Below, in pieces: positions 1,259 to 60,991 of a stretch of 64,000 nt of DNA (position 1 is its first letter; each line of letters begins with the position of its first letter). A program made the translations under genes and the position numbers. Source of the DNA: a virus. The stretch spans positions 32,001-96,000 of the IMG/VR virus record IMGVR_UViG_3300033146_005596; one strand, written 5' to 3'. The notes beneath the pieces were generated by a model. The model was not told the origin of the DNA, ran no database searches, and worked only from the letters and a program-made list of their open reading frames with translations.

Positions 1259-3192
1259 TGAATAATAAAGACCTTATAAAAACATTTGAGAATGTTTTGG
1301 ACAATAGAGATAATAGTGATAAAAGCAGAACAGCTATTAGTACCGCTTTAAAAAATATTATAGAATATTTATATCAAGATAAAGTAAACTATTTAAAATA
1401 TAAAGGGTTAAATACTGCTATAAATAACCTACAGGATATATTGTCAGTACAATATGATGAAAAACGGTCGTATTTAAATGAAATGTCGTTATTTGAGTAT
1501 GAAGTAGTAAGATATGAGCTAAACGATAGTGGGGAAGAAATTGAAGACCCAGCTCACCAGACTACAGTTAACTTTTTACCAGATGAAGCACCCAAAGATA
1601 TATTGAAGTGGCTGGACTTAAAATGTAGTATAGACAATGGTACCACATGGAAAACCAACTGGGACTATATGACTCTGAGGCTTGGTAGTAAAATATCATT
1701 TGAGCTGAATCCTAGTGATGAGATAGTTAATGTCAATAGCTATATATCAGCAAGTAGTAGTAATTTTTTAAATTTTGCTACATTCAAATCACCTGGATAT
1801 TGGGAGCATACATATAAGTCTGTTAAGAAAGATACTGATGACCCTCTTCCTGTATCAGCTGATTCATTAAAATCTTGGTACCCGTCTACTTTGAACGGAT
1901 ATATATATACTAGTATTGAAAAGAAACTTTTAACAAAGTATGATAGAGAAGAAAGAGAACAACATAAAGCTGAAAAAAGCGGAACATTAGCTCTTAATGA
2001 AGATACAGATGCAAAGCATACCTTTTTATTATTAACATTATTACTCAATGGTCTGCAATCAAGCTTAACTGTTGAAAGCTACACTGCAATAAGTGATGGG
2101 GATAACATTATTTCTGGTCTAAGCTTCCAAGATGAGTATATTGGGGTAATAGAAAAAGTATTACCTACATCAGAATACTATCTAGTTAGAAAAAATAGTA
2201 CTACTTATGAATATGTTTCTATGGGTGCTACCTCATGGAGTGCAGCAAATGCCCCAACCATATTGGACGGAGACGAGTTCAAACTCCACTATAGCCTACC
2301 AGTATATACTGAAGTTGGTGCTGCCTTTGAAAATCCTTTTAACCAGTTTTATAAGACTAAGCTAGAGAGCTTAAACTTTATAGAGTATGCAAATCTCCCT
2401 AGTTATTATCAGAGTAGAGAACCATCTGCGGAAACAAACTGGCTAGCATTAAAAAATACTAGTACTGGAAAATTTGAGATTAGTTTTAATACCTTATCTG
2501 CAGTTAGGAGTACTCAGCCAAACTTTATGAGCTATACTCAAATAGACAGTGTTTTAGGCTACATAAAATCTCAGGAAAAAGATAAACTATCAGACAACAT
2601 AGATGGTTCAGGTATGTACAAAAAAAGATTTGAACTTCTTTATTTACGATTGCACAAAACAGATGGGCTATACGCTAAAGCTGTAGCGGCTGAGATTGGG
2701 AAATACTCCATGACTTCTATGAACAACTTTTCTGAAGACTCTGACAGCATTTCCAAGCAGTATGAAACAGCCGTTAAACTATTTGATTATAGAGTGGATA
2801 ATAAAAAAGATACTTTTTTACTTGAGATGCTTGACTATGAAAAGTATTTAGACCCTAGTCTACCTCCAGAGGTACCAAAGTTTGTTGCTGGTAATAAATT
2901 TTATTTAATATATACTGATATATCTATGACCAAAAAAATAAAAGAGTTTTCTTTTTCAGACCTGATAATAAATACTAATATAGTATATGATACTCATGTT
3001 ATGGATATGAATTATAAAGAAAAGACCTATATTGATGGTATCATGGTACCAAATATGCGGCCTGCAAAATGCTATAGCTTAAAGCTCTTAGAGAATACTG
3101 AAGAAATTGCTCAAGACGAAGATGCAATTTTTGGTATTTTAGTTCCAGAGTCTAGTAGCTCTATTGTCGTACCGCCTAACCCTTGGGCATAA
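1258..3192 (+). CDS. hypothetical protein (possibly structural)
   Basis: 644-aa ORF followed by a hairpin at a convergent boundary. Confidence 0.6.
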   Translation: MNNKDLIKTFENVLDNRDNSDKSRTAISTALKNIIEYLYQDKVNYLKYKGLNTAINNLQDILSVQYDEKRSYLNEMSLFEYEVVRYELNDSGEEIEDPAHQTTVNFLPDEAPKDILKWLDLKCSIDNGTTWKTNWDYMTLRLGSKISFELNPSDEIVNVNSYISASSSNFLNFATFKSPGYWEHTYKSVKKDTDDPLPVSADSLKSWYPSTLNGYIYTSIEKKLLTKYDREEREQHKAEKSGTLALNEDTDAKHTFLLLTLLLNGLQSSLTVESYTAISDGDNIISGLSFQDEYIGVIEKVLPTSEYYLVRKNSTTYEYVSMGATSWSAANAPTILDGDEFKLHYSLPVYTEVGAAFENPFNQFYKTKLESLNFIEYANLPSYYQSREPSAETNWLALKNTSTGKFEISFNTLSAVRSTQPNFMSYTQIDSVLGYIKSQEKDKLSDNIDGSGMYKKRFELLYLRLHKTDGLYAKAVAAEIGKYSMTSMNNFSEDSDSISKQYETAVKLFDYRVDNKKDTFLLEMLDYEKYLDPSLPPEVPKFVAGNKFYLIYTDISMTKKIKEFSFSDLIINTNIVYDTHVMDMNYKEKTYIDGIMVPNMRPAKCYSLKLLENTEEIAQDEDAIFGILVPESSSSIVVPPNPWA

Positions 3193-51760: not shown

Positions 51761-51832
51761 TAGCAGTGGCTGGAATTGCACCAACATGCACTAGGTTATG
51801 AGCCTAGCCGCTTTCTAATCGCTCACACTGCG
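51761..51832 (-). tRNA. tRNA-Met(CAT), initiator-like 1:72 mismatch
   Basis: CUAGG-CUCAUAA-CCUAG anticodon arm; GUUGG-UGCAAUU-CCAGC T-arm; CGCAGUG/CACUGCU acceptor. Confidence 0.8.
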
Positions 51833-51833
51833 A

Positions 51834-51906
51834 CGGAAAATCTTGGGTTCGAACCAAGGACCTACGACTTTACAGACCGTTGCTCTACCAACTGAGCTAA
51901 TTTTCC
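51834..51906 (-). tRNA. tRNA with GTA (Tyr) anticodon, short variable loop
   Basis: GGAAAAU/AUUUUCC acceptor, GCUC/GAGC D-stem, ACGGU-CUGUAAA-GUCGU, CUUGG-UUCGAAC-CCAAG. Confidence 0.8.
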
Positions 51907-51910
51907 AGGA

Positions 51911-51981
51911 CGGAAAATCTTGGGTTCGAACCAAGGACCTACGAGGTAACAGCGTTGCTCTACCAACTGAGCTAATTTTCC
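51911..51981 (-). tRNA. duplicate tRNA body with remodelled, shortened anticodon arm (atypical or pseudo tRNA)
   Basis: identical to 51834..51906 except the anticodon arm ACG-CUGUUACCU-CGU. Confidence 0.65.
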
Positions 51982-52007
51982 AGTAATTTGCATTCTAAAT
52001 GCTAATT

Positions 52008-52080
52008 TAGTTCCTAAGAGATTCGAACTCTTGTTATCAGATTGAAGGCCTGATGTCCTAACCAATTAGACGAAGGAACC
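52008..52080 (-). tRNA. tRNA-Glu(TTC), C at position 33
   Basis: GGUUCCU/AGGAACU acceptor, Glu-type GUCUA..GGUUAGGAC D-arm, UCAGG-CCUUCAA-UCUGA, AAGAG-UUCGAAU-CUCUU. Confidence 0.8.
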
Positions 52081-52163
52081 AAGTCATGAGCCTTGTTACT
52101 AACTCATACTTATAATAGCTAACAAACTTGCTCGCTCTGAATACTTCAGCCAGCTAAAGTTAA

Positions 52164-52236
52164 GTAAGACGACTCAGATTCGAACTGAGGAACTCCTGTT
52201 CCCAAATGGACCACTTGTGCAACCCAACCCGTCTTA
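52164..52236 (-). pseudogene. degenerate tRNA-Pro(TGG)-like sequence
   Basis: intact acceptor UAAGACG/CGUCUUA and T-arm CUCAG-UUCGAAU-CUGAG; UUUGGGA loop but unpaired anticodon and D stems. Confidence 0.55.
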
Positions 52237-52281
52237 TGCTATTTAATTAGTGCTTTGAGGTTTTATACTCAAAACTAATTA

Positions 52282-52352
52282 TAGGGCCTAGAAAATTTGA
52301 ATTCCTACTATCTCCGTCAAAGGGAGATGTGCTACCATTACACTAAAGCCCT
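52282..52352 (-). tRNA. tRNA-Gln(TTG)
   Basis: AGGGCUU/AGGCCCU acceptor, GUGU/GCAC D-stem, UCUCC-CUUUGAC-GGAGA. Confidence 0.8.
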
Positions 52353-52933: not shown

Positions 52934-53282
52934 CTAACAATTGTTTAGAAAGCTTCATAGCTTTGTCCATATCATAAGATAACAACGCAAATAATATTGC
53001 TCTTCTTTCTGGGCTCAAGCTATCTTTGTTAAGCTCATAGAAATCTTCAGCAGAAACCTGTGTTTGATTTTCATCATAGTATTTTCTAAACTCACAGTAA
53101 TGTACAATCTTTTCAAGGTCCAGCATATCTTGACCGGGCTTCTTTCTCAAAATATATTTGATAGCTGACGCAGTACAAAAGTCCATGTTATGGATTAGCT
53201 CAATAGGCTGTACTCCTGCATTGTCCTGATGCTTTTTATAATGGTTTCCACCGGGCTGATAATCTAACGGATTTTTACTCAT
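52899..53282 (-). CDS. DUF3310 family protein (T7 gp1.7-like nucleotide kinase)
   Basis: Q.GGNHYK...VQPIE...MDFC...AIKYILR.K.G...DLEK..HY. Confidence 0.75.
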   Translation of the reverse strand: MSKNPLDYQPGGNHYKKHQDNAGVQPIELIHNMDFCTASAIKYILRKKPGQDMLDLEKIVHYCEFRKYYDENQTQVSAEDFYELNKDSLSPERRAILFALLSYDMDKAMKLSKQLLDDKKRLEARSV

Positions 53283-53345
53283 TTGTTTTATTCTCCTTAT
53301 GTTATTATAATAAGGAGATTTTAATAGTTTTTAATTATTAAAATA

Positions 53346-53381
53346 AAAAAAAATCCACTCAATACTAAGACGAGTGGATTT
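53346..53381 (-). terminator. intrinsic terminator
   Basis: AAATCCACTC...GAGTGGATTT with A-tract (U-tail on - strand). Confidence 0.7.
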
Positions 53382-53401
53382 GAGCAGTTAATAAACTGGG
53401 T

Positions 53402-54010
53402 TTAATCCTCCCAAAGTTTCTGGTAGGTATAACAAGTTGTTGCATTAAAGTTGATACTACCTGCTGAGGTAGAAAACTCCATGTCGTACTCTTCTCCATT
53501 AAGCTCAAAAGTGATATATAATTCAGCCGCACTAATATCTATGTAGTTTTCAGGAGTTAAATCTGAATGAATAAAGCCTTCTCCATACATAGTGGGGTCT
53601 ACTGAGTTGACATCAGCTAAGTATAATGTATTTCTAACTTCTTCTTCAAAGTCTTCAACCTTACCACTAGCCTCATCAATAAGCCAATACATAGCTGGGC
53701 TATTCATTGCATCTTTTAACAACTGGTCTTGGTCAAAAGTTAAAGTTCCTTTTACCTCCTCATCAGTTTGAACGTCACTGGTTGACATTACAGCGTAGTA
53801 GGATTCAAATATAACTTCCCCTGTAATATTAAACTCAAAATCACTTTGCTGAGACTGGGTAAACTCTGCATTGTTCAGACTAATACTTACACCAGAACCA
53901 CTGCCTTCTTGGACTCTAGCTTTACTTTTAACAGAAATGAAATCTCCAGACTCCACTATAATATTAGTCCCCGGAATTCTAAATTCATTTCTTGCTTGTA
54001 TTCTGTTCAT
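53402..54010 (-). CDS. acidic hypothetical protein with N-terminal FRIPGTN motif
   Basis: N-terminus shared with ORF 5774..6292; ACTTATTA motif upstream. Confidence 0.6.
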   Translation of the reverse strand: MNRIQARNEFRIPGTNIIVESGDFISVKSKARVQEGSGSGVSISLNNAEFTQSQQSDFEFNITGEVIFESYYAVMSTSDVQTDEEVKGTLTFDQDQLLKDAMNSPAMYWLIDEASGKVEDFEEEVRNTLYLADVNSVDPTMYGEGFIHSDLTPENYIDISAAELYITFELNGEEYDMEFSTSAGSINFNATTCYTYQKLWED

Positions 54011-54066
54011 AATTAAAATGTTTCTCCTTTGTTAATTATATAATAAGTACCATCAAAAAAAAACAG

Positions 54067-55434
54067 TTAAAAAGTTAAGCCCAAATTTTTTAATGATTTA
54101 TTCAAGTCTTCTTTTCTCTGTTTTTCAGAGACTACGATTCTATCTGGGTTCCAGACTTCAGTTGGGCCATAAGGAAAAACTTGATTCAATAGCTCTAGTA
54201 CTGCTGTTGTTGCATCTGAAACGTCCTTTGCATTTATGCCACATCTTTCTTTTTCCCAAGCGTTCTCTCCACCTCCATACGACATAGTTGGGCCACTTGA
54301 GTGGTCAATTTTAGTAGTTCCTGTTCTTTTTCTTTTTGCATATTCCAGAGTCTTTAGCTCGTTTTTAAAATAGCAATTCCTTCCTGATTTAACACGGCCA
54401 GTTGTTATATAAGATAATAAATTGAGGTACGGTCCTACTTCTTTATCTACTGATAACTTTCTTGTATCTATCTCAATAGAGTTCAAATACTGTATCAGAC
54501 TTTCTGACTGGAAATTATCAAAACTTACTGCTTCCAAGTGTATATTGCCCAAATGTACAAGGTCTTTTATAAAGAATTTAATAGCATCTAGTGATATTCT
54601 ACCACCAAGCGGGGATACAACAATTTGCATATCAACAACAAATATTGGCTCATTTTTTATACGGTCTAACTCTAAATGGCCCATTGCTAATCCAAGATTA
54701 TCGCCAGTTAATGCTAAGTCAACTGCTAAGCACCTAGGAATATGAGGCTTGTAATAAAAGCTATATCGTGCTAGATTATACTCAAAGAATATATCTTTAA
54801 TCTGGTCCCAAATACAATGAGTTGGGTCTTCTTTAACACTAGCAAATATATGTCCTTCTATACTCCTAAACTCCGTCATAAAAATGTTATCAATTAGTCT
54901 ATGGTCCATTATAAACCTTGATTTTTGTCCAGAGGGGATTCCAGATATATCTTTAAGTGACTTCAACAAGTCATCTATATAATATTGCTTTTTCTCTTTT
55001 GGTACCCACTCCAAATCAGTTGGGCTGTACTGGTCAACTTCGTGCTCTGGTACAATCTGAGGCGGCCGCCCTTTTCCGCCTTTAAAAACAGGAAATCTAT
55101 CATCTGGATTTTCATAGTCCTCTGGGCGCCAGTCATACTCAGCACCTTTAATAATTAAGTTCTTAGGATTTTTATGGGCTTCTTGCAGGATATATTTATC
55201 AATTGGACTTTCAATATCATTAGGTGAAGAATCCAAAATAGTACGGCCCCAGTAATTACCTCTAAGTCTTGACTCAATTCTTCCTTTAGCATCATTGTAT
55301 AACCGCATAACAAACTCAGGGCTATTATGAGTTATTATGTTATCATTTACAATAAATAAGCCATCATCAGCCCCTACAGTTATACACCTTTGTGGTTTTT
55401 TTCCGACTTTTTTTATACTTACTATTTTAGGCAT
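54067..55434 (-). CDS. terL: terminase large subunit, C-terminal half, led by a 37-aa C-intein
   Basis: MPKIVSIKKVG...CITV...GLFIV..NIITHN|S intein C fragment; ILDSSPN motif III; AVDLALTGD, SFDNFQS and KDVSDA RNase H-type nuclease motifs. Confidence 0.88.
   Translation of the reverse strand: MPKIVSIKKVGKKPQRCITVGADDGLFIVNDNIITHNSPEFVMRLYNDAKGRIESRLRGNYWGRTILDSSPNDIESPIDKYILQEAHKNPKNLIIKGAEYDWRPEDYENPDDRFPVFKGGKGRPPQIVPEHEVDQYSPTDLEWVPKEKKQYYIDDLLKSLKDISGIPSGQKSRFIMDHRLIDNIFMTEFRSIEGHIFASVKEDPTHCIWDQIKDIFFEYNLARYSFYYKPHIPRCLAVDLALTGDNLGLAMGHLELDRIKNEPIFVVDMQIVVSPLGGRISLDAIKFFIKDLVHLGNIHLEAVSFDNFQSESLIQYLNSIEIDTRKLSVDKEVGPYLNLLSYITTGRVKSGRNCYFKNELKTLEYAKRKRTGTTKIDHSSGPTMSYGGGENAWEKERCGINAKDVSDATTAVLELLNQVFPYGPTEVWNPDRIVVSEKQRKEDLNKSLKNLGLTF
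55324..55434 (-). mobile_element. split intein C fragment (class 3)
   Basis: block F with Cys (RCITV), block G ITHN followed by Ser. Confidence 0.88.
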
Positions 55435-57322
55435 CTTGTCTCTCCTTTACAAAAACTTTCATACCACAATCAAATATTCTGTTATAATTATTTGCAATCA
55501 TGTTTTCAACTTCTGTTTTTGACTCATCAAAATTAAATCCCTCTATATTTTTTAATTTATGCTTCTGAAATTGCTGCCTTGATTTTAGAATAAGAGAATC
55601 TTTAAAATAGTAATAATTTGGTGAGCTTATTCTTTCTAAGGAAAATCCTAGTTTTTCATAGCTGGTACCACCAAACCATCTATAATCACAATAAGATATT
55701 ATATTTCCTTTATACCTATTTTCAAAATGTTTTAATAACTTTGCTTTTCCACCTAAAACATGAACTCCCTGTTTTTCACAAAACCTAAGCAATTCATAGT
55801 TATACTTTTTATTAAACCTTGATTTTCCAAAGGACATTACACTAACAAGTTCAGTTCCTTGGTATAGCCCTAGTTTTATAGACGCAGCGATATATCCTTG
55901 TAAATGATTTTCTTCTAAAAATAGTTTATATTCTTTATTTCCTACTTCCCTAATATCAGTCTTCCTTCCTCCTATTTTTTTTGATTTTCCAAGCAAGCTA
56001 GAAAGGGTTGCTAAAACTAATTTTTTATTATTTATATACTCATTTTCCCATATATGTATAATTCTAATTCCTTTTTTTTCTGCAAGTTTAGTCTTGTCTA
56101 TATGATACTTTTTTCCTTTCATTAGCTCAGAATGCCAATAAATACCATCATACTCTATTCCTAAATTAAGTTCTGGAATAAAAATGTCTATTTCCTTACC
56201 ATCTAAATATTTACGGCTGTTTAATACAGTTTTATACCCTAGAGCTTTTATATAACTGTTTATTTCAATCTCTGCTCTCGAAGCATGCTTTTGAATAGGA
56301 AAGCATTTTTGACATTGAGCTTTGTGTATATGACTAGGTGGGTAGATTAAAGGTGTTATCTCACCACACTTAGTACATTCAGTAAAAAAAGTATCATCTT
56401 TATAGATAAACTTTAAAGAGTATTTTGAAAAATCAAGATTTTTGAACTTCTCTAAATTTTCTAAATGATGCCTCTTTTGTCTCTTCATTTTTATTGTGTC
56501 TGTACTCCATAGGGCTTTATAGCCTCCATACTTTTTATCCACAGTTGCTTTAGCTTTATCTCCAGCTCCCTTTAACTGATGAGGGTTTATAACCCCGTAC
56601 CTTTCTTTTAATGTTTCCTGATAATGCCTCAAGCCCTCTTCTGACTGCATAAAATGTTCTGTACCATACTTTTTAAGAAAAGTATCTCTTGACTTCAAGT
56701 TACGTTTTTTATAAAAATCAGGTTTAGATTCTATTGTCTTTTTAGCTTTAGTTTTAACTACCTCTGATTGAGTTGCATACTCAGTCCCATACTTCTTTAA
56801 GTTTGTTTCTCTACTTTTTTTCTTAAACCTTTCAAGTTGAAGAGCACTCTCTACGCCATATTTTTCAAGCATAGTCTTTTTTTGATTTATTAAAACATAG
56901 CTATAGTAATCTTCCATTGTTCCATATTTTTCTACTATAGTAGCTCGTCTTTTAGCTTCACGTTTTTCAAACCATAAAGGGTCTTTATTTATTGTTATTT
57001 TACTTTTTATATCTCTTTGATTTTTCCAGTTTTCCATAGTACCATAGTGTTCTAGAATAGTTTTTTTCCATATTTCTTTTCTATCTTTTCCCCAGTCTGG
57101 ATTATTTTTAATAGTCTTATTCCTTTTCAGTTGCTTTTGCTTTTCAGCTTCTTCTAAAGACCCATATTTTTCGAGCCTTGCTTTCTTAGCTCTATCCATA
57201 ACTATTTTAGAACAGGAAGTACACCTAGCATTAGACAACCTTTTGTAATCAGTATAGGACTCAAAAGGTTTTTTACACATACCACAAATAACAGTTCTTG
57301 ATTCTTTTAGTTTCTTACTCAT
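55427..57322 (-). mobile_element. free-standing homing endonuclease (Hef/Vsr-like PD-(D/E)XK)
   Basis: zinc fingers, many KYG helical repeats, EIDIFIPELNLGIEYDGIYWH...IIHIWENE nuclease core, C-terminal FLEENHLQG...ELLRFC...ISYCD.RW domain; sits between the split intein halves. Confidence 0.8.
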
Positions 57323-57370
57323 ATATAATTAGTTCACTTACATTTTTAGGTATAAACTTGACGACTAAGA

Positions 57371-58930
57371 CTATGAGAGCTCTGGAATACTGAAACTATA
57401 CGTGTCCATGTTTTCTAAAATAAACCTAGTTGTTTTTACTTCTTGTAGACTTTTTCCATTTTTAGTATAATTAACAAGCCATAAATGTTCTAAGTTACAT
57501 TCAACTTTTTTTCCATTATCAAAAGTTATTTCATAGGCATCGTCAGTTCCCTCATAGGGTATACCTACTACAGGTGTAGTACCTAAAAAAGGATGAGTTA
57601 TAGTATCCCCAAGTTTCAAGGCCCCTATTGGGACTTTGCCTTGTGGAGTTTCAACCAAAGTCTCAAGAACCAGAGCTTTTCCTGCATCAAGGAAAAAGCT
57701 GATTTCACTGAGTACAATGCTGGCAAAGTTTATTCCTAATAATTTGCTAGGGTTAGTGACTATTTTTATATTAGCACCATTAGAGAAAGATAGCGCTGAG
57801 GAAGGAGCAGCTGTTGTCCAGTAAATTCTATTATCTCCTTTAGTGCCTTTATCATTTTTCCATTCAAAATCAAGTTTTCTCATTTTGTCCGCTGTCCGTA
57901 CCCTTTCAAAATATGGTGACTGCGCTAAAATATTAAGGAACGGCTCTAGTAATAGCTCTGAGGTTTTTTCAATGGAGTATGAAATAAAACCTTGTGCAAT
58001 TATTGAAGCTGGTGATAAACCAAAATATTCTTTTGAATCTCGCATTAAAGATAAATGGGTAGTTATGTACAAAGTTATTAGGGTAGAAAGATATGAATTA
58101 TGAGTTATTATATTATTTTCTAATACATATAGCCCCTCTTCTGAGTCAAGTGTGATACATTTTTGTTCTACAGGCGGAAGCTTTTTAATTCCTTTTAGTT
58201 TTACTTTACCCTTATAGTCTCCATTTTCTTGACCTATATCTGATGGAAATAAATAATGCAAATCTGGATTTTCAAGTATAAACTTAGTTTCTACATTTTC
58301 CCATGCTCTATAGCTATAAGACACTCTCCAGATGTGGTTAAGCCCACACTGTGCTGTTCTACTATCAGCAAACTCGAGTTCATATACATCTTTTTTACCT
58401 TGAGGGTGTTCAGCAATTACTTTAGCTGTACCTCCATTTGGGGTTACAACTGTATCTCCTACAGTTAATTCACCCATTGTTTTTATTCCTGTTGGTATTT
58501 TAATTCTAGTATCTACTGGTTGTTCTTTACCAAAGCCTATGTGGGGATATAAAATTAAGTCCCTATACTCTGCACTATTGCTAAAAAATAGCTTAAATAT
58601 ATCTTTTATTCTTGGGTATGTACTCAAGATAGCTCTTCCTAAGTACTTCTCAGTTAAAAACTCCTCAGGTGTTGGTGGTTTACTTGTATATAGTATCTTC
58701 CAGCTATTCTGTACCAAATACGATTTCTGTACTTCATTCAATTCAGGGTTATTTAATAGGTAGTCTAGTGCTAATTGTACCTTCTCATTATTACCGTTTA
58801 ATTTTTCTATAAAAGTAGGGTGCTCAGCAGCTTGTGCATCTCCCATTATTACATCAGTTAATAAGGAGGATAGCTCGTTCAATTCTTTCATTGAGTAAAT
58901 TGTATTATTTTTTATATTTAAATCAACCAT
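57371..58930 (-). CDS. terL: terminase large subunit, N-terminal half, with a contiguous mini-intein and an N-intein
   Basis: PTPEEFL...YLG, Walker A IGFGK|S interrupted by an intein, IVLSEISFF Walker B, then AGK|ALVLET N-intein ending at the stop. Confidence 0.88.
   Translation of the reverse strand: MVDLNIKNNTIYSMKELNELSSLLTDVIMGDAQAAEHPTFIEKLNGNNEKVQLALDYLLNNPELNEVQKSYLVQNSWKILYTSKPPTPEEFLTEKYLGRAILSTYPRIKDIFKLFFSNSAEYRDLILYPHIGFGKEQPVDTRIKIPTGIKTMGELTVGDTVVTPNGGTAKVIAEHPQGKKDVYELEFADSRTAQCGLNHIWRVSYSYRAWENVETKFILENPDLHYLFPSDIGQENGDYKGKVKLKGIKKLPPVEQKCITLDSEEGLYVLENNIITHNSYLSTLITLYITTHLSLMRDSKEYFGLSPASIIAQGFISYSIEKTSELLLEPFLNILAQSPYFERVRTADKMRKLDFEWKNDKGTKGDNRIYWTTAAPSSALSFSNGANIKIVTNPSKLLGINFASIVLSEISFFLDAGKALVLETLVETPQGKVPIGALKLGDTITHPFLGTTPVVGIPYEGTDDAYEITFDNGKKVECNLEHLWLVNYTKNGKSLQEVKTTRFILENMDTYSFSIPELS
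57374..57676 (-). mobile_element. split intein N fragment (101 aa, Ala1, class 3)
   Basis: block A ALVLETLVETPQG, IGALKLGD, YEITFDNG, block B CNLEHLW; no C-terminal HN. Confidence 0.88.
58097..58525 (-). mobile_element. contiguous class-3 mini-intein (143 aa) in the Walker A motif
   Basis: GK|EQPVDTRIKIPTG...MGELTVGD...CGLNHIW...QKCITL...GLYV...ITHN|S. Confidence 0.9.
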
Positions 58931-58984
58931 ATACTAATAAGTTCTTGTTGGTACCGGGCTTAAACTGGTACCAACTTATTAAAC

Positions 58985-59458
58985 ATGAAAGAAGCTGAAG
59001 TTAATAACATTATTAGAAAGAGTTTAGACTGGGGTTATAAAATTCCAGATGATGGAAGTTCAATGTCAATGGGTATAAAAAGACCTTTTGATGTATTTGG
59101 TATTATAGACGGGAGACCTATCTATATAGAATCCAAAGCTATGAATAAAATGCAGAGTTTTAATCTTGGTAAAATACGAGACCACCAAATAAAAAGCCTA
59201 GTGGATATTAAGAAATTAAATCCAGATGCAATTTGTGGTATAGCTCTATCAGTTAATTGTGGACGTGCAAAGCATAGACTCTATCTTTGGACTGATGTTG
59301 AAGAAATTGCAAGACGTCGAGATAATAAAGAAAACTTTAAAAAAACTGAATTAGAAACTCTGGAAAACTATGTACTACGCAAAAAAACCACCTGCATAAA
59401 TGGAGATGGTTACACAGTTAGCTGTCATAAATATGACATCAAAAGCTTAATTAGCTAA
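58985..59458 (+). CDS. RecU-like Holliday junction resolvase
   Basis: E....KIPD...RPFD...IYIESK...IRDHQI.SL. Confidence 0.75.
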   Translation: MKEAEVNNIIRKSLDWGYKIPDDGSSMSMGIKRPFDVFGIIDGRPIYIESKAMNKMQSFNLGKIRDHQIKSLVDIKKLNPDAICGIALSVNCGRAKHRLYLWTDVEEIARRRDNKENFKKTELETLENYVLRKKTTCINGDGYTVSCHKYDIKSLIS

Positions 59459-60991
59459 ATCATAATATTTCTGAAAAGCCAAGAGCTTAGCTTTGTGCTT
59501 ATCAACTTCTTGCTCTATTTTATTCAAGCGTCTATCTAAGAAAGATTCTTGCTGAACAGACTTTTCTTCTTGGGCCTCTTCTGAGCTTACCTGTGGCTCT
59601 TTCGCTTTTTCAGGATTTTGCTCTACCTGCTCTGTATCGTCAGTTGGCTCCTCAGAAGCTTTTCCAGTTCTAAACTCTTCAATAACCCTTTTATTTATAG
59701 GTAAGACCTCATTTATTGCTTCTTTAGAGAACTCTGAGCTTTTAGACCGGATTAAGACTTGTCCTGCTTCTAGCATTTTTCCATTGTACTCAAATGAAAA
59801 TTGTACCAGTCTTGGGTCCAAGCCATATAACTCTTTTGAGCTATCAAACTTGGAATATAACTTTAAAATTTCGTTTCTGTTATCTATCTTTTCATTACCA
59901 AACTTTGTACAAATAGCTACTGTAAAGAAAGTGCTTAGCTCATAGCCTTCTCCTTCTCTTAAAATAAGACTTCGTGAGTTCCCGTGTAAATCAAAGGTGA
60001 TTGTTTCAGTATTAGTAGTATTGTTCAATAAGCGAACTAGTGCTGCTAAAAAAGATGAGTTTTTAGTTGATATGTCCTTCATATACTCATCAATGAACTC
60101 TGGTATCAACTTAATAGGTGTGGCTGCTAATTCAGTTGTTTTATCCTTATCATTAAAATCATAGCCTCCATCACCTTCTTGCATACCTAGAAAACTCAAG
60201 CCTGTTATATGAGATATTACTTTACTTAATGATTTCTGCATATAATAGTCTTTTAATAAAAAGCTATGAATTGATTTTCTTGCGGACTCTTTTGCTTTAT
60301 AGCTAATTGCTAATGCGTTAAACTGTTGCTCTCTTGAAGCTGCTGCTCTTGTAAATGAAAATATATACTGGAGGATTGATTCCTTAAAACCTTCCTCTTT
60401 TTGTTCATCATTAGCTTGTGGTAAGAAATACATCTCAACTAGAGGTCCATGCCCAAACTTAATTGCATCTGTCAATAGCAGGTCATATATTTTAAATGAT
60501 TTTTGGTTAGTGCTTTGAGTTTCTTTTTGTTCTGGCTGCTCATCAGCTTCTTGTACTTTGGTACCATTGTTTCTTTGTGCTTTTTCAGCATTGGCCTTTG
60601 CTTTTTTCCTATTTTCTGGGTCTGAAAGCAAAGGATTTATTTTAAATTTACCATTTTTATATTCTGTGTGTACTTTTTGAAAAGTCCCTATATTTAGCTG
60701 TTGAGTGTCTGTTTGAGACAAGGCTTTTTTATAAATCTCACTTAGGATATATAATCTTATTCCTACATCTGCATCGTTTTTTAAATTCAGAGGGTCATCA
60801 TTAGTGGATAGTTTTTTCCAGGCGTCCATTAACTCTTTATATAAAGTCAAAAAATCACCATCATAACCATGCAAAGCAGCAACGGCACCAATTATTTCCT
60901 TAAAGCTTACTATAGAGCCTTTGGGAATACTGATGCCATTAACTGTGGTTGTTCTTTCTAAATAAATACATCTTTCTACAAATCTTTTCAT
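59447..60991 (-). CDS. hypothetical protein (possible internal virion protein)
   Basis: 514 aa; ACTAATTA motif upstream; FKE/VQE/QQE candidate processing sites. Confidence 0.55.
   Translation of the reverse strand: MKRFVERCIYLERTTTVNGISIPKGSIVSFKEIIGAVAALHGYDGDFLTLYKELMDAWKKLSTNDDPLNLKNDADVGIRLYILSEIYKKALSQTDTQQLNIGTFQKVHTEYKNGKFKINPLLSDPENRKKAKANAEKAQRNNGTKVQEADEQPEQKETQSTNQKSFKIYDLLLTDAIKFGHGPLVEMYFLPQANDEQKEEGFKESILQYIFSFTRAAASREQQFNALAISYKAKESARKSIHSFLLKDYYMQKSLSKVISHITGLSFLGMQEGDGGYDFNDKDKTTELAATPIKLIPEFIDEYMKDISTKNSSFLAALVRLLNNTTNTETITFDLHGNSRSLILREGEGYELSTFFTVAICTKFGNEKIDNRNEILKLYSKFDSSKELYGLDPRLVQFSFEYNGKMLEAGQVLIRSKSSEFSKEAINEVLPINKRVIEEFRTGKASEEPTDDTEQVEQNPEKAKEPQVSSEEAQEEKSVQQESFLDRRLNKIEQEVDKHKAKLLAFQKYYDLAN

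Follow-up and report, generated by a model that had tools for sequence, protein, structure and literature searches.

A phage terminase gene split around an endonuclease gene, its halves probably rejoined by a split intein with a class-3 signature

How does a phage obtain one large terminase subunit (TerL) from a gene that is interrupted by a gene for another enzyme? The question is raised by a locus in the window, the stretch of 64,000 nucleotides analyzed here, which belongs to a metagenomic viral contig of 126.6 kb with a completeness rated at 43%. An earlier note on this DNA had described a TerL N-half, a 631-aa endonuclease open reading frame (ORF) and a TerL C-half, and all three are indeed present, on the minus strand. 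We propose, with a probability of roughly 0.8, that the TerL gene is fractured and that its halves are rejoined by protein trans-splicing of a class-3-type split intein.

Anatomy and identity of the fractured gene

The locus comprises the following features, in order of transcription.

57371-58930, minus: ORF A, TerL N-half, 519 aa (ORF call)
58526..58930, minus: TerL N-extein part 1, ORF A aa 1-135, with the Walker A residues GFGK at its end
58097..58525, minus: intein 1, a contiguous 143-aa class-3-type mini-intein in the P-loop, ORF A aa 136-278
57677..58096, minus: TerL extein part 2, ORF A aa 279-418, with the Walker B strand (IVLSE) and DAGK at its end
57374..57676, minus: IntN, 101 aa, A419 to S519, with H482-L-W484 in block B
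57371-57373, minus: TAG stop of ORF A, directly after IntN
57323..57370, minus: 48-nt spacer from the IntN stop to the endonuclease start (sequence reading)
55427-57322, minus: ORF B, free-standing homing endonuclease gene, 631 aa (ORF call)
55442..55447, minus: Shine-Dalgarno sequence AAGGAG, within the 3' end of the endonuclease gene and 7 nt upstream of the start codon of ORF C
54067-55434, minus: ORF C, IntC and the remaining TerL, 455 aa (ORF call)
55324..55434, minus: IntC, 37 aa, M1 to N37, with C17 in block F and T35-H36-N37 in block G
54067..55323, minus: TerL C-extein, S38 to F455, 418 aa and TAA stop, with the remaining ATPase part and the nuclease domain

In ORF A, the motif SFFLDAGK ends at residue 418 and is followed by ALVLET from residue 419 on, with LEHLW at 480-484; in ORF C, C17 lies in QRCITV, and T35-H36-N37 is followed by S38-PEF. 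These positions agree with the proposed 101-aa IntN, which follows DAGK, has Ala first and carries no HN, and with the proposed 37-aa IntC in front of SPEF. ORF C starts at an ATG (55432-55434) that overlaps the stop of the endonuclease gene. A clear Shine-Dalgarno sequence was not found by sequence reading in the 48-nt spacer before the endonuclease start (57323..57370). In the window scan, promoter-like sites (21 vs. 21.8 expected) and terminator-like sites (3 vs. 3.0 expected) were at chance level.

The nearest protein to this TerL, P0002, is an intein-free ortholog of 693 aa. Alignment to such a homolog had been suggested as a check, and it placed the two halves collinearly at the exact proposed junction. 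Extein part 1 aligned with P0002 residues 1-135 (80% identity), part 2 with residues 136-275 (93.6%) and the C-extein with residues 276-693 (78.9%), each with 0 gaps. The three pieces lie end to end on P0002 and add up to 135+140+418 = 693 aa, which is the length predicted for the spliced protein and that of P0002 itself. Furthermore, P0002 reads LDAGK/SPDY (the slash marks the junction) at the exact place of the predicted ligation LDAGK/SPEF. Since the alignment is gapless, it fixes the intein boundary at Ala419. We conclude from the aligned residues that the resemblance between the TerL halves and P0002 at the junction is not due to chance.

The assignment of the gene to TerL was borne out by its homologs and by the fold of P0002. 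The C-extein matched 115 phage records, the best of which are annotated as terminase large subunit, and tblastn with the C-extein picked out Vibrio and Maribacter phages through their annotated terminase large subunits (E 3e-19). When P0002 was modeled with AlphaFold (mean pLDDT 83.8), the model, which has a strand at 258-265 and a helix at 267-272 in extein part 2, gave the large terminases of T4 (gp17), HK97, D6E and Sf6 as top PDB fold matches (E 1e-11 to 1e-9, probability 1.00). Ranks 1-26 were taken by full-length TerL proteins, followed further down by isolated nuclease and ATPase domains of TerL. The TerL motifs GFGK/S and IVLSE were seen in the window sequence itself. Taken together, the gene is a phage TerL with a modeled ASCE ATPase carrying Walker A and B and a C-terminal RNase-H-like nuclease fold, both folds being assessed on P0002 (79-94% identical) in place of the window protein.

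The fold settled this identity, because a sequence profile of 30 full-length TerL homologs had 0 matches in the PDB. There was no TerL match in the Pfam copy searched and a weak one in PHROG (PHROG 17415, E 0.005), and searches of Pfam and PHROGs with ORF C gave nothing useful. The homologs have a precomputed assignment to the Pfam family PF27249. The PHROG matches of ORF A to "terminase" and "DnaC-like" lie mostly over its intein parts (aa 106-222 and 415-495) and were therefore not taken as TerL evidence. The 4.9-kb region had no megablast match among GenBank phages.

Could the halves be rejoined at the RNA level? If the 1.9-kb insert were a group I or group II intron carrying an endonuclease gene, its removal would leave a contiguous cis intein. 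A group I intron is known in this gene family, where it is located 9 codons past the same intein junction in L068 (RF00028, 82.5 bits). However, no Rfam intron was matched at E≤1 between positions 53000 and 60000 of the window, and RNA-level rejoining was rejected on this ground. Moreover, IntN ends at a stop, IntC starts in a different frame, at an ATG preceded by a strong Shine-Dalgarno sequence, and many database proteins start at the same IntC Met, which makes an intron hardly conceivable here. TAA recoding was rejected as well: TAA, used by 33 of 48, is the commonest stop among the long ORFs, the stop of ORF A is TAG, and readthrough of the endonuclease TAA does not enter the IntC frame. 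A tRNA with the anticodon TTA is encoded 2 kb away from the TerL region.

Class-3 signature of the two inteins

The earlier note spoke of two splicing reactions and thereby implied a second intein, which we found as aa 136-278 of ORF A. This intein 1 is inserted in the Walker A loop (GFGK/...ITHN/S) and is missing from P0002 between K135 and S136. It has Glu as its first residue, NHIW in block B, QKCITL in block F and ITHN/S at its end. Its best PDB sequence match is the 139-aa replicative DNA helicase intein 6BS8/6OWN (E 3.7e-9), and 6RIX/6RIY was also matched. Intein 1 aligns end to end with 6BS8, with Cys and THN in register, and its QKCITL is aligned with VRCVEV of 6BS8 and LICIEV of 6RIZ. 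Its sequence identity is 35% with IntN and 46% with IntC.

In the split intein, position 1 is Ala419, directly after DAGK, and a nucleophilic Cys, Ser or Thr is absent there. The Ala-Leu start is common to the 18 split IntN and the two cis forms at this site (18/18 and 2/2). All 18 IntN also have the His-x-Trp of block B (CN..H.W), with H and W invariant in 15 of 15 aligned N-halves, and H482-L483-W484 of the window is in register with EHLW of 6RIZ and HQW of 6BS8. The best PDB sequence match of IntN is gp41-1_WCT (6RIZ; E 2.4e-7, EHLW with EHLW), with 6QAZ at E 4.9e-6. According to PMC7664689, the EHLW of 6RIZ includes His63 and Trp65 of a grafted class-3 motif. At the other end, block G and the +1 residue read T35-H36-N37/S38. 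C17, T35, H36, N37 and S38 are invariant in the 15 aligned C-halves (15/15), and C...THN/S occurs in 22 of the 22 C-halves of site c. The block-F position of Cys17 was assigned by alignment and not by structure, because it was reached via the paralogous intein 1 and the similarity of IntC. By these alignments, the split intein has the class-3 signature that had been claimed for it, namely, a first residue that is not a nucleophile together with the block-B Trp, the block-F Cys and the block-G Thr, and the signature is conserved in the 18 IntN and 22 IntC relatives.

This signature suggests class-3 chemistry with a branched thioester at the block-F Cys. The signature alone is no guarantee of activity, since the gp41-1_WCT graft (A1/W/C) mainly underwent C-terminal cleavage and gave no productive splicing (PMC7664689). 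That the WCT graft failed to convert gp41-1 by itself is also compatible with ligation by another route, in which the +1 Ser attacks the N-junction (class-2-like) or some other first nucleophile acts. So is the existence of AceL NrdHF, a split class-3 intein that deviates from the motif (PMC7891396), and the mechanistic class was assigned here from sequence alone. Nevertheless, Ala at position 1 rules out class 1, and the intein has a complete, conserved W/C/T triplet as well as conserved His residues in block B and at the penultimate position. Furthermore, the contiguous paralog, intein 1, matches the helicase inteins 6BS8 and 6RIX, which are described as class 3 (PMC7664689). The P-loop inteins of the relatives vary at position 1 (A, L, T, Y or E), as expected if this position is not catalytic. 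We consider a route other than class 3 very unlikely.

The endonuclease gene and the relatives of the locus

The proposal that a homing endonuclease gene separates the halves held up in Pfam, PHROG and PDB-profile searches with the 631-aa ORF B. It matched DUF7487 in Pfam (E 5.5e-21) and PHROG 3339, "homing endonuclease" (E 5e-119). A Pfam match to MTES_1575 was below the curated cut-off (E 1.2e-6; 29 bits vs. 38.2), and DUF559 was matched at E 0.026. For a profile of five endonuclease homologs, the top PDB match was I-Bth0305I (3R3P, "Mobile intron protein"), a weak match (E 0.005) over ~60 residues. The protein consists of N-terminal Cys pairs, repeated ..KYG.. modules (DUF7487), a nuclease core at aa ~353-442 and a C-terminal domain. 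The core is a candidate Vsr-like/PD-(D/E)xK nuclease; E377, D379, E384, E390, W396 and H397 are conserved in 5 of 5 homologs. The gene is present in single copy in the 126.6-kb record, and its product is ~57 aa shorter than those of the relatives.

Of the C-half's 120 best relatives, 35 have an IntC-like peptide at their start; P0013, P0040, P0069, P0085, P0105, P0114 and P0099 were assigned as IntC-bearing by eye from their N termini. The statement that natural split class-3 inteins are rare thus holds in print, where the searchable literature yielded one characterized example, AceL NrdHF (PMC7891396), but not in this TerL family. When viral_contigs was scanned with the C-half protein alone, no relative was confirmed, an alignment query being needed. 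In the metagenome scan, the IntC-extein junction was one of the two patterns used; this biases the scan toward intein-bearing loci, and it provides no frequency estimate.

At the insertion site of IntN/IntC, the relatives form a natural series of empty alleles, a cis mini-intein (P0125, which is L026), a cis intein carrying a LAGLIDADG endonuclease (L007) and the split form. The order N-half, homologous endonuclease of 688-690 aa and C-half recurs in L009/L030/L031, L020/L028 and L073. The endonucleases of these relatives are 29-32% identical to that of the window in local alignments and 33-34% over the MAFFT alignment (E 3e-61 in blastp; E 1.8e-63 for L073 in tblastn). One TerL clade is heavily colonized by selfish elements.

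Recurrence bears on the concern that the gene is dead, i.e., that a recent endonuclease invasion broke the intein, that no trans-splicing occurs and that the contig stems from a defective or decaying phage. Such decay would fit a metagenomic contig with 43% estimated completeness and a split allele without a close relative, the nearest protein P0002 being intein-free. However, all three ORFs are intact, without internal stops, and the same arrangement with a homologous endonuclease is shared with at least two other diverged lineages, which indicates that the split event is old. The 8-nt overlap of the endonuclease gene with the C-half is conserved as well, being also present in L009 and L020. 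Between these two, dN/dS was 0.20 for IntN, 0.03 for IntC and 0.09 for the endonuclease, the exteins having values of 0.006 and 0.04. In the L009/L020 pair, both intein halves are under purifying selection, as is the endonuclease, the evidence from selection and recurrence coming from relatives of the window phage that are 39-54% identical in the exteins. We give a dead gene little credence. At a dN/dS of 0.20, IntN changes faster than the exteins.

Proposed trans-splicing and its relation to known systems

A class-3-type mini-intein probably resided in the TerL ATPase domain, ten residues past the Walker B glutamate. A free-standing Vsr-like homing endonuclease gene would have invaded it at the usual endonuclease-insertion loop, and therefore the intein, and TerL with it, would have come to be split over two polypeptides. 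Each half would be translated on its own, the C-half from a separate AAGGAG ribosome-binding site, and IntN (101 aa) and IntC (37 aa) would come together as a single HINT fold. The block-F Cys17 of IntC would attack the Lys418-Ala419 peptide bond, taking up the N-extein as a branched thioester, and the N-extein would then be transferred to Ser38 (+1). Cyclization of Asn37 would free the intein, and an O-to-N acyl shift would yield LDAGK-SPEF. Intein 1 in the Walker A loop would also have to excise itself in cis, and cis and trans splicing together would give the 693-aa TerL. The endonuclease would serve its own spread by homing and not the function of TerL.

Complex prediction with IntN (409-519) and IntC (1-47) gave an ipSAE of 0.70 (best control, 0.01); the runs agreed in at least 92% of contacts, and partner pLDDT was at least 73. 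In the benchmark, 116 of 157 solved complexes attained the ipSAE mark, as did 2 of 215 mismatched pairs. The prediction points to association of IntN with IntC, although the pass may reflect likeness to solved split-intein complexes. It is equally compatible with intein halves that act only as a dimerization module, the TerL halves being held together non-covalently in a motor that works without ligation. Indeed, for one phage enzyme, fragmentation by a mobile endonuclease and reassembly in the absence of splicing have been described (PMC3045599). Nevertheless, the residues of the chemistry (block-F Cys, Thr-His-Asn and +1 Ser) are invariant in the relatives. Moreover, the break interrupts the ATPase core after Walker B and before the helix that follows it, where ~138 extra residues would remain. 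We regard such assembly without ligation as quite unlikely and favor trans-splicing.

The split inteins gp41-1, NrdJ-1 and IMPDH-1, which go back to Dassa et al. in 2009, reportedly have Cys first. In the fractured genes of that study, a Vsr-like endonuclease family was present in half of the loci, and one terminase locus was reported; the study predates the class-3 definition, and the term occurs 0 times in its accessible text (PMC2677866). The closest solved sequence to IntN, gp41-1 (6QAZ; engineered 6RIZ), is likewise naturally split at the same kind of site, stems from a phage fractured gene and has THN at its end. In contrast, native gp41-1 is class 1, with Cys1, Phe65 and Asp107 where the window intein has Ala, Trp and Cys (PMC7664689).

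In nr, Hoffmann et al. (2020; PMC7891396) counted 1701 class-3 inteins, with 0 split forms among them. Their AceL NrdHF is also a natural split class-3 intein from a phage-like metagenomic contig, with Ala1, a block F Cys (motif C2:4), a +1 Ser and a typical split site (98 + 48 aa vs. 101 + 37 aa in the window). It differs in the host protein (RNR NrdHF vs. TerL) and the endonuclease (GIY-YIG type vs. candidate Vsr-like). Furthermore, it has an atypical MCT motif and neither of the two conserved C-terminal His residues, whereas the window intein carries the canonical W-C-T triplet together with a penultimate His. AceL-TerL, GOS-TerL and Cat-TerL share with the window a split intein in a metagenomic phage large-terminase gene, but they are listed as class 1 (Cys1 or Ser1) and are atypically split, with N parts of 25-37 aa and C parts of 104-115 aa vs. 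101 + 37 aa (PMC11766414). The contiguous class-3 helicase/terminase inteins (6BS8/6OWN, 6RIX/6RIY; PMC2807308) have the WCT motif, the non-nucleophilic residue 1 and the P-loop NTPase insertion in common with the window intein, but they splice in cis. According to the accessible text of bioRxiv 10.1101/2025.01.02.630785, class-3 inteins are common in actinophage TerL (287 class-3 inteins, 4 extein types), and one split intein, of phage Zeenon, is in a different extein.

By its motifs, the window intein is a split class-3 member with the canonical WCT motif, from a sizeable metagenomic family. Split inteins are workhorses of protein ligation, labeling and split-gene delivery. Here, the block-F Cys and the +1 Ser, as the two nucleophiles, would be on the side of the short 37-aa C-fragment, and so would the cyclizing Asn. 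Since the N-fragment would need no catalytic first residue, junction requirements would be relaxed, which would suit semisynthesis. A canonical-motif example with dozens of natural variants would also provide a comparative set for engineering.

A wider reading, which we offer tentatively and hold to be somewhat doubtful, is that a single TerL clade of uncultured phages contains a large undescribed reservoir of WCT class-3 split inteins, of which the window shows one member, and with it a natural class 1/class 3 intermediate. The split inteins would sit at three or more insertion sites, with a different selfish nuclease gene interrupting each. The nuclease genes at these sites may be Vsr-like/DUF7487, an HNH-like ORF and, in one locus, TnpB. 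The family would be such an intermediate because IntN is closest to the class-1 split intein gp41-1. If so, classes 1 and 3 would interconvert by ordinary divergence, against the convergence proposal, and the family would supply the compensatory changes missing from the failed gp41-1_WCT graft. The cis form and the endonuclease-bearing form at the same site, together with the measurable similarity to gp41-1, a fast intein, may help to address how class-3 chemistry evolved. For the phage itself, the packaging motor would depend on one cis and one trans splicing reaction, each with a single internal Cys.

Anatomy of the terminase gene and collinearity of its halves

Three minus-strand ORFs were confirmed where the earlier note had placed a fractured gene for the large terminase subunit (TerL).

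Features of the fractured TerL gene (slashes in motifs mark junctions; boundaries within ORF A are from motif mapping)
57371-58930, minus: ORF A, 519 aa, TerL N-half
ORF A aa 1-135: extein part 1, ending GFGK
58097-58525, minus (ORF A aa 136-278): intein 1, a contiguous 143-aa class-3-type mini-intein, EQPVD...ITHN
ORF A aa 279-418: extein part 2, SYLST...FFLDAGK
ORF A aa 419-519: IntN, the 101-aa N-terminal half of the split intein, ALVLET...LEHLW...PELS, then a TAG stop
55427-57322, minus: ORF B, 631 aa, endonuclease gene
54067-55434, minus: ORF C, 455 aa, TerL C-half
ORF C aa 1-37: IntC, the 37-aa C-terminal half of the split intein, MPKIV...QRCITV...ITHN
ORF C from S38: C-extein, S38-PEF and then 414 more residues

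As read from the sequence, 48 nt separate the ORF A stop from ORF B, and the ATG of ORF C lies within the final 8 nt of ORF B, with AAGGAG upstream at 7-nt spacing. Intein 1 is placed in the TerL Walker A loop (GFGK/E...ITHN/S) and has Glu as its first residue. The extein lengths (135, 140, and 418 aa) bear out the 693-aa spliced product that the earlier note had calculated.

A tblastn search with the C-extein matched 115 phage records, the best being annotated as terminase large subunit (26-28% identity; E 3e-19). Furthermore, a search of a large protein collection retrieved P0002, a 693-aa TerL ortholog without inteins. The alignment was gapless, with the three pieces at residues 1-135, 136-275, and 276-693 (80%, 93.6%, and 78.9% identity, respectively). 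P0002 reads ...CIGWGK/SYLSTL... and ...FFLDAGK/SPDYVMR... across the two junctions, which fixed both intein boundaries to the residue. This alignment with an intein-free homolog upholds the proposal that the halves are collinear parts of one TerL at the junction.

Pfam and PHROG searches with ORF C gave no match, P0002 matched PHROG 17415 alone (E 0.005), and a PDB sequence search with a 30-sequence TerL profile returned zero matches. Since sequence libraries performed poorly for this TerL clade, P0002 was folded instead, using the 30-sequence alignment (mean pLDDT 83.8). Foldseek with this model ranked large terminases at the top (T4 gp17 [3CPE, E 1.1e-11], HK97, PhiV-1, D6E, Sf6, and T7), followed by TerL nuclease and ATPase domains. 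In the model, K135/S136 falls within the P-loop, with strand 124-129 on one side and helix 135-152 on the other. The second junction, K275/S276, comes after the Walker B strand (258-265, ...VLSE) plus a short helix and immediately precedes helix 277-295. According to this prediction, both inteins interrupt the ATPase core, so that neither gene product alone would provide a complete ATPase.

The N-half of TerL is directly preceded by an oppositely oriented 157-aa ORF (58985-59458, plus), which matched PHROG 843 "Holliday junction resolvase" (E 2.5e-11), and the PHROG search gave no match for the TerL neighbors of 514 aa and 202 aa. A cluster of four tRNA genes (51832-52352, minus) comprises Tyr-GTA, Glu-TTC, Gln-TTG, and an ARAGORN-called tRNA-Stop with anticodon TTA. 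Despite the latter, wholesale TAA recoding in the window is unlikely, since TAA is the commonest stop among its long ORFs (33/48).

Class-3 motifs and predicted association of the split intein

The split intein starts with Ala and contains H482-L-W484 as block B, C17 within QRCITV of IntC, and T35-H36-N37 at its C-terminus, followed by S38. Thus, all defining sequence features of class 3 are present, in agreement with the class proposed in the earlier note, and Ala1, the block-B Trp, C17, and T35 are conserved in relatives. An Ala-Leu start and CN..H.W were found in both cis forms and in all 18 split IntN (partly non-independent) of the window's site (DAGK/S). C17, T35, H36, N37, and S38 were invariant in 15/15 aligned C-halves, and C...THN/S was present in each of the 22 C-halves of this site among the 120 best relatives. 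At the P-loop site, the inteins of relatives, many of them with LAGLIDADG domains, start with A, L, T, Y, or E, as expected if residue 1 is noncatalytic. That the halves are ligated by a route other than that of class 3 seems highly improbable.

Intein 1 is a paralog of the split intein in the same gene (35% identity to IntN, E 1e-14; 46% to IntC, E 5e-6). It aligned over its full length with the helicase intein 6BS8/6OWN (E 3.7e-9), with QKCITL over VRCVEV and THN over THN of 6BS8, and also with 6RIX/6RIY. We take 6BS8 to be the M. smegmatis DnaB class-3 intein, and the 6RIX/6RIY chains are presumably the Mycobacterium chimaera DnaB1 intein. The closest solved relative of IntN was gp41-1 (engineered gp41-1_WCT, 6RIZ, E 2.4e-7; 6QAZ, E 4.9e-6), on whose EHLW the EHLW of IntN was aligned. 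According to PMC7664689, the M. chimaera DnaB1 intein belongs to class 3, and EHLW in gp41-1_WCT contains His63 and Trp65 of a grafted class-3 motif.

A complex of ORF A residues 409-519 with ORF C residues 1-47, predicted from custom-built alignments, scored 0.70, compared to 0.01 for the best control; the mark applied is reached by 116/157 solved complexes and 2/215 mismatched pairs. The runs agreed in at least 92% of contacts with a partner pLDDT of at least 73, and the predicted interface comprised nearly the whole IntC and residues 416-422 around the scissile bond. As structures of split-intein complexes have already been determined, the high score may stem from resemblance to these, and the prediction points to compatibility of IntN and IntC rather than to binding.

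Following the established class-3 pathway (PMC2807308, PMC7891396, and PMC11766414), the N- and C-halves would be translated separately, and IntN and IntC would cofold. C17 would then attack the K418-A419 bond, the N-extein would be transferred onto S38, and N37 cyclization and an O-to-N acyl shift would yield LDAGK-SPEF, while intein 1 would be excised in cis. The 37-aa IntC thus supplies the two nucleophiles as well as the Asn. Alternatively, the halves could assemble noncovalently without ligation, but this would leave the invariant chemistry residues unexplained and is very unlikely.

Recurrence, selection, and the genes between the halves

The relatives were the 120 best database matches to the C-extein in a length window of 229-732 aa, which excluded long cis-intein forms; all counts cover these matches and 73 loci. 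They comprised 79 uninterrupted TerLs (670-729 aa), 35 proteins with an IntC-like start, and 6 truncated ones. The IntC-like starts (7 of these relatives were assigned by eye from their N-termini) fell at the window's site in 22 cases (window included), at the P-loop site, which is thus also split, in 6, at a site 18 residues upstream of the window's site, before Walker B, in 6, and elsewhere in 1.

An extein-pattern scan of IMG/VR yielded 17 loci. The window's site was empty in 13, occupied by a cis intein with a LAGLIDADG endonuclease in 2 (L007/L008, which share one sequence), and fractured in 2 (L009 and L020). In both fractured loci, a 378-aa N-half ending in IntN is followed by a 688-aa endonuclease (32% identity to that of the window, E 3e-61) and the C-half, the latter two overlapping by 8 nt, as in the window. 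Besides duplicates of earlier loci, a metagenome scan, biased to intein-bearing loci through one of its patterns, contributed L031 as well as L073 (endonuclease of 690 aa, E 1.8e-63). Moreover, P0125 (= L026) has a natural contiguous mini-intein at the window's site. Thus, a single site has empty, mini, endonuclease-bearing, and split alleles. Since the extein pieces of the window and L009 share only 39-54% identity, the split form is old.

For the close pair L009/L020, dN/dS was 0.006 (N-extein), 0.20 (IntN), 0.09 (endonuclease), 0.03 (IntC), and 0.04 (C-extein). We conclude that purifying selection acts on IntN, IntC, and the endonuclease in this lineage. A dead TerL gene, which we consider highly unlikely, would be at odds with three intact ORFs, a recurrent arrangement, and the selection in L009/L020.

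In line with the homing endonuclease that the earlier note had assigned between the halves, ORF B falls into PHROG 3339 "homing endonuclease" (E 5e-119). Its Pfam matches are DUF7487 repeats (E 5.5e-21) and, under the cutoff, a weak nuclease match to MTES_1575/DUF559. A PDB search with a five-homolog profile gave 3R3P "Mobile intron protein" as the top match, weak at E 0.005. 3R3P is I-Bth0305I, the representative of the Vsr-like family, which was reportedly first found in fractured genes by Dassa et al. The core residues E377, D379, E384, E390, W396, and H397 are invariant in 5/5 homologs, and ORF B is single-copy within the 126.6-kb viral record. A region conserved across the five homologs (aa 479-562) shows weak likeness to a GNAT-fold acetyltransferase (2BSW, E 0.0045); this C-terminal domain may bind DNA or have another accessory role.

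Other selfish elements were detected in the TerL clade. In the metagenome contig L025 (3054-8464), TerL is split at the upstream site by an intein with Ala1, HLW, and QQC...THN/T. Its halves flank a TnpB-like ORF of 394 aa (Pfam OrfB_IS605, E 1.2e-12; Cas12f1-like TNB, E 1.3e-10) instead of a classical homing endonuclease. In L043 (1370-4722), the P-loop-site intein is split around a 280-aa ORF with an HNH-like HHVIP motif, for which the Pfam search gave no match; its IntN is apparently Ser-first (GWGK/SLYVL...), which leaves the mechanistic class ambiguous even though the split intein has NEHIW and QQC...THN. In L037 (154-4603), the upstream site has a split intein around a 430-aa DUF7487 ORF; just 17 extein residues later, the window's site is occupied by a contiguous class-3-type intein that contains LAGLIDADG (DAGK/ALALDT...PTHN/SDDY).

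In L068, a shorter 422-aa DUF7487-type ORF lies between IntN and IntC, and a group I intron (2866-3090; RF00028, 82.5 bits, E 1.8e-21) is located in the C-extein, 9 codons past the same junction; together with the split intein, this makes three kinds of selfish elements in one TerL gene. An intron beside this junction would fit removal of the insert by RNA splicing, but an Rfam search of window positions 53000-60000 revealed no intron and the C-half is equipped with a separate start site, making splicing at the RNA level unlikely.

Comparison with known split inteins

The kind of arrangement, in which a naturally split class-3 intein occurs in a fractured phage gene, is already known. Our full-text literature search found one characterized case, the AceL NrdHF intein; the paper describing it reports split forms for 0/1701 class-3 inteins in nr (PMC7891396), and in the table of a 2025 review AceL NrdHF is the sole class-3 split entry (PMC11766414). 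AceL NrdHF has an MCT triplet, lacks two conserved His residues, and resides in an RNR gene with a GIY-YIG endonuclease partner, whereas the host gene in the window is TerL (PMC7891396). The TerL split inteins AceL-TerL, GOS-TerL, and Cat-TerL differ in being listed as class 1 with short N-fragments (PMC11766414, same table). Dassa et al. list a single fractured terminase locus and give no class for it (PMC2677866), and our literature search, with subscription journals largely outside its reach, found no report of a split class-3 intein in TerL. What sets the present case apart as new is its host (TerL), its canonical motif, a putatively Vsr-like partner gene, the family size, and its similarity to gp41-1.
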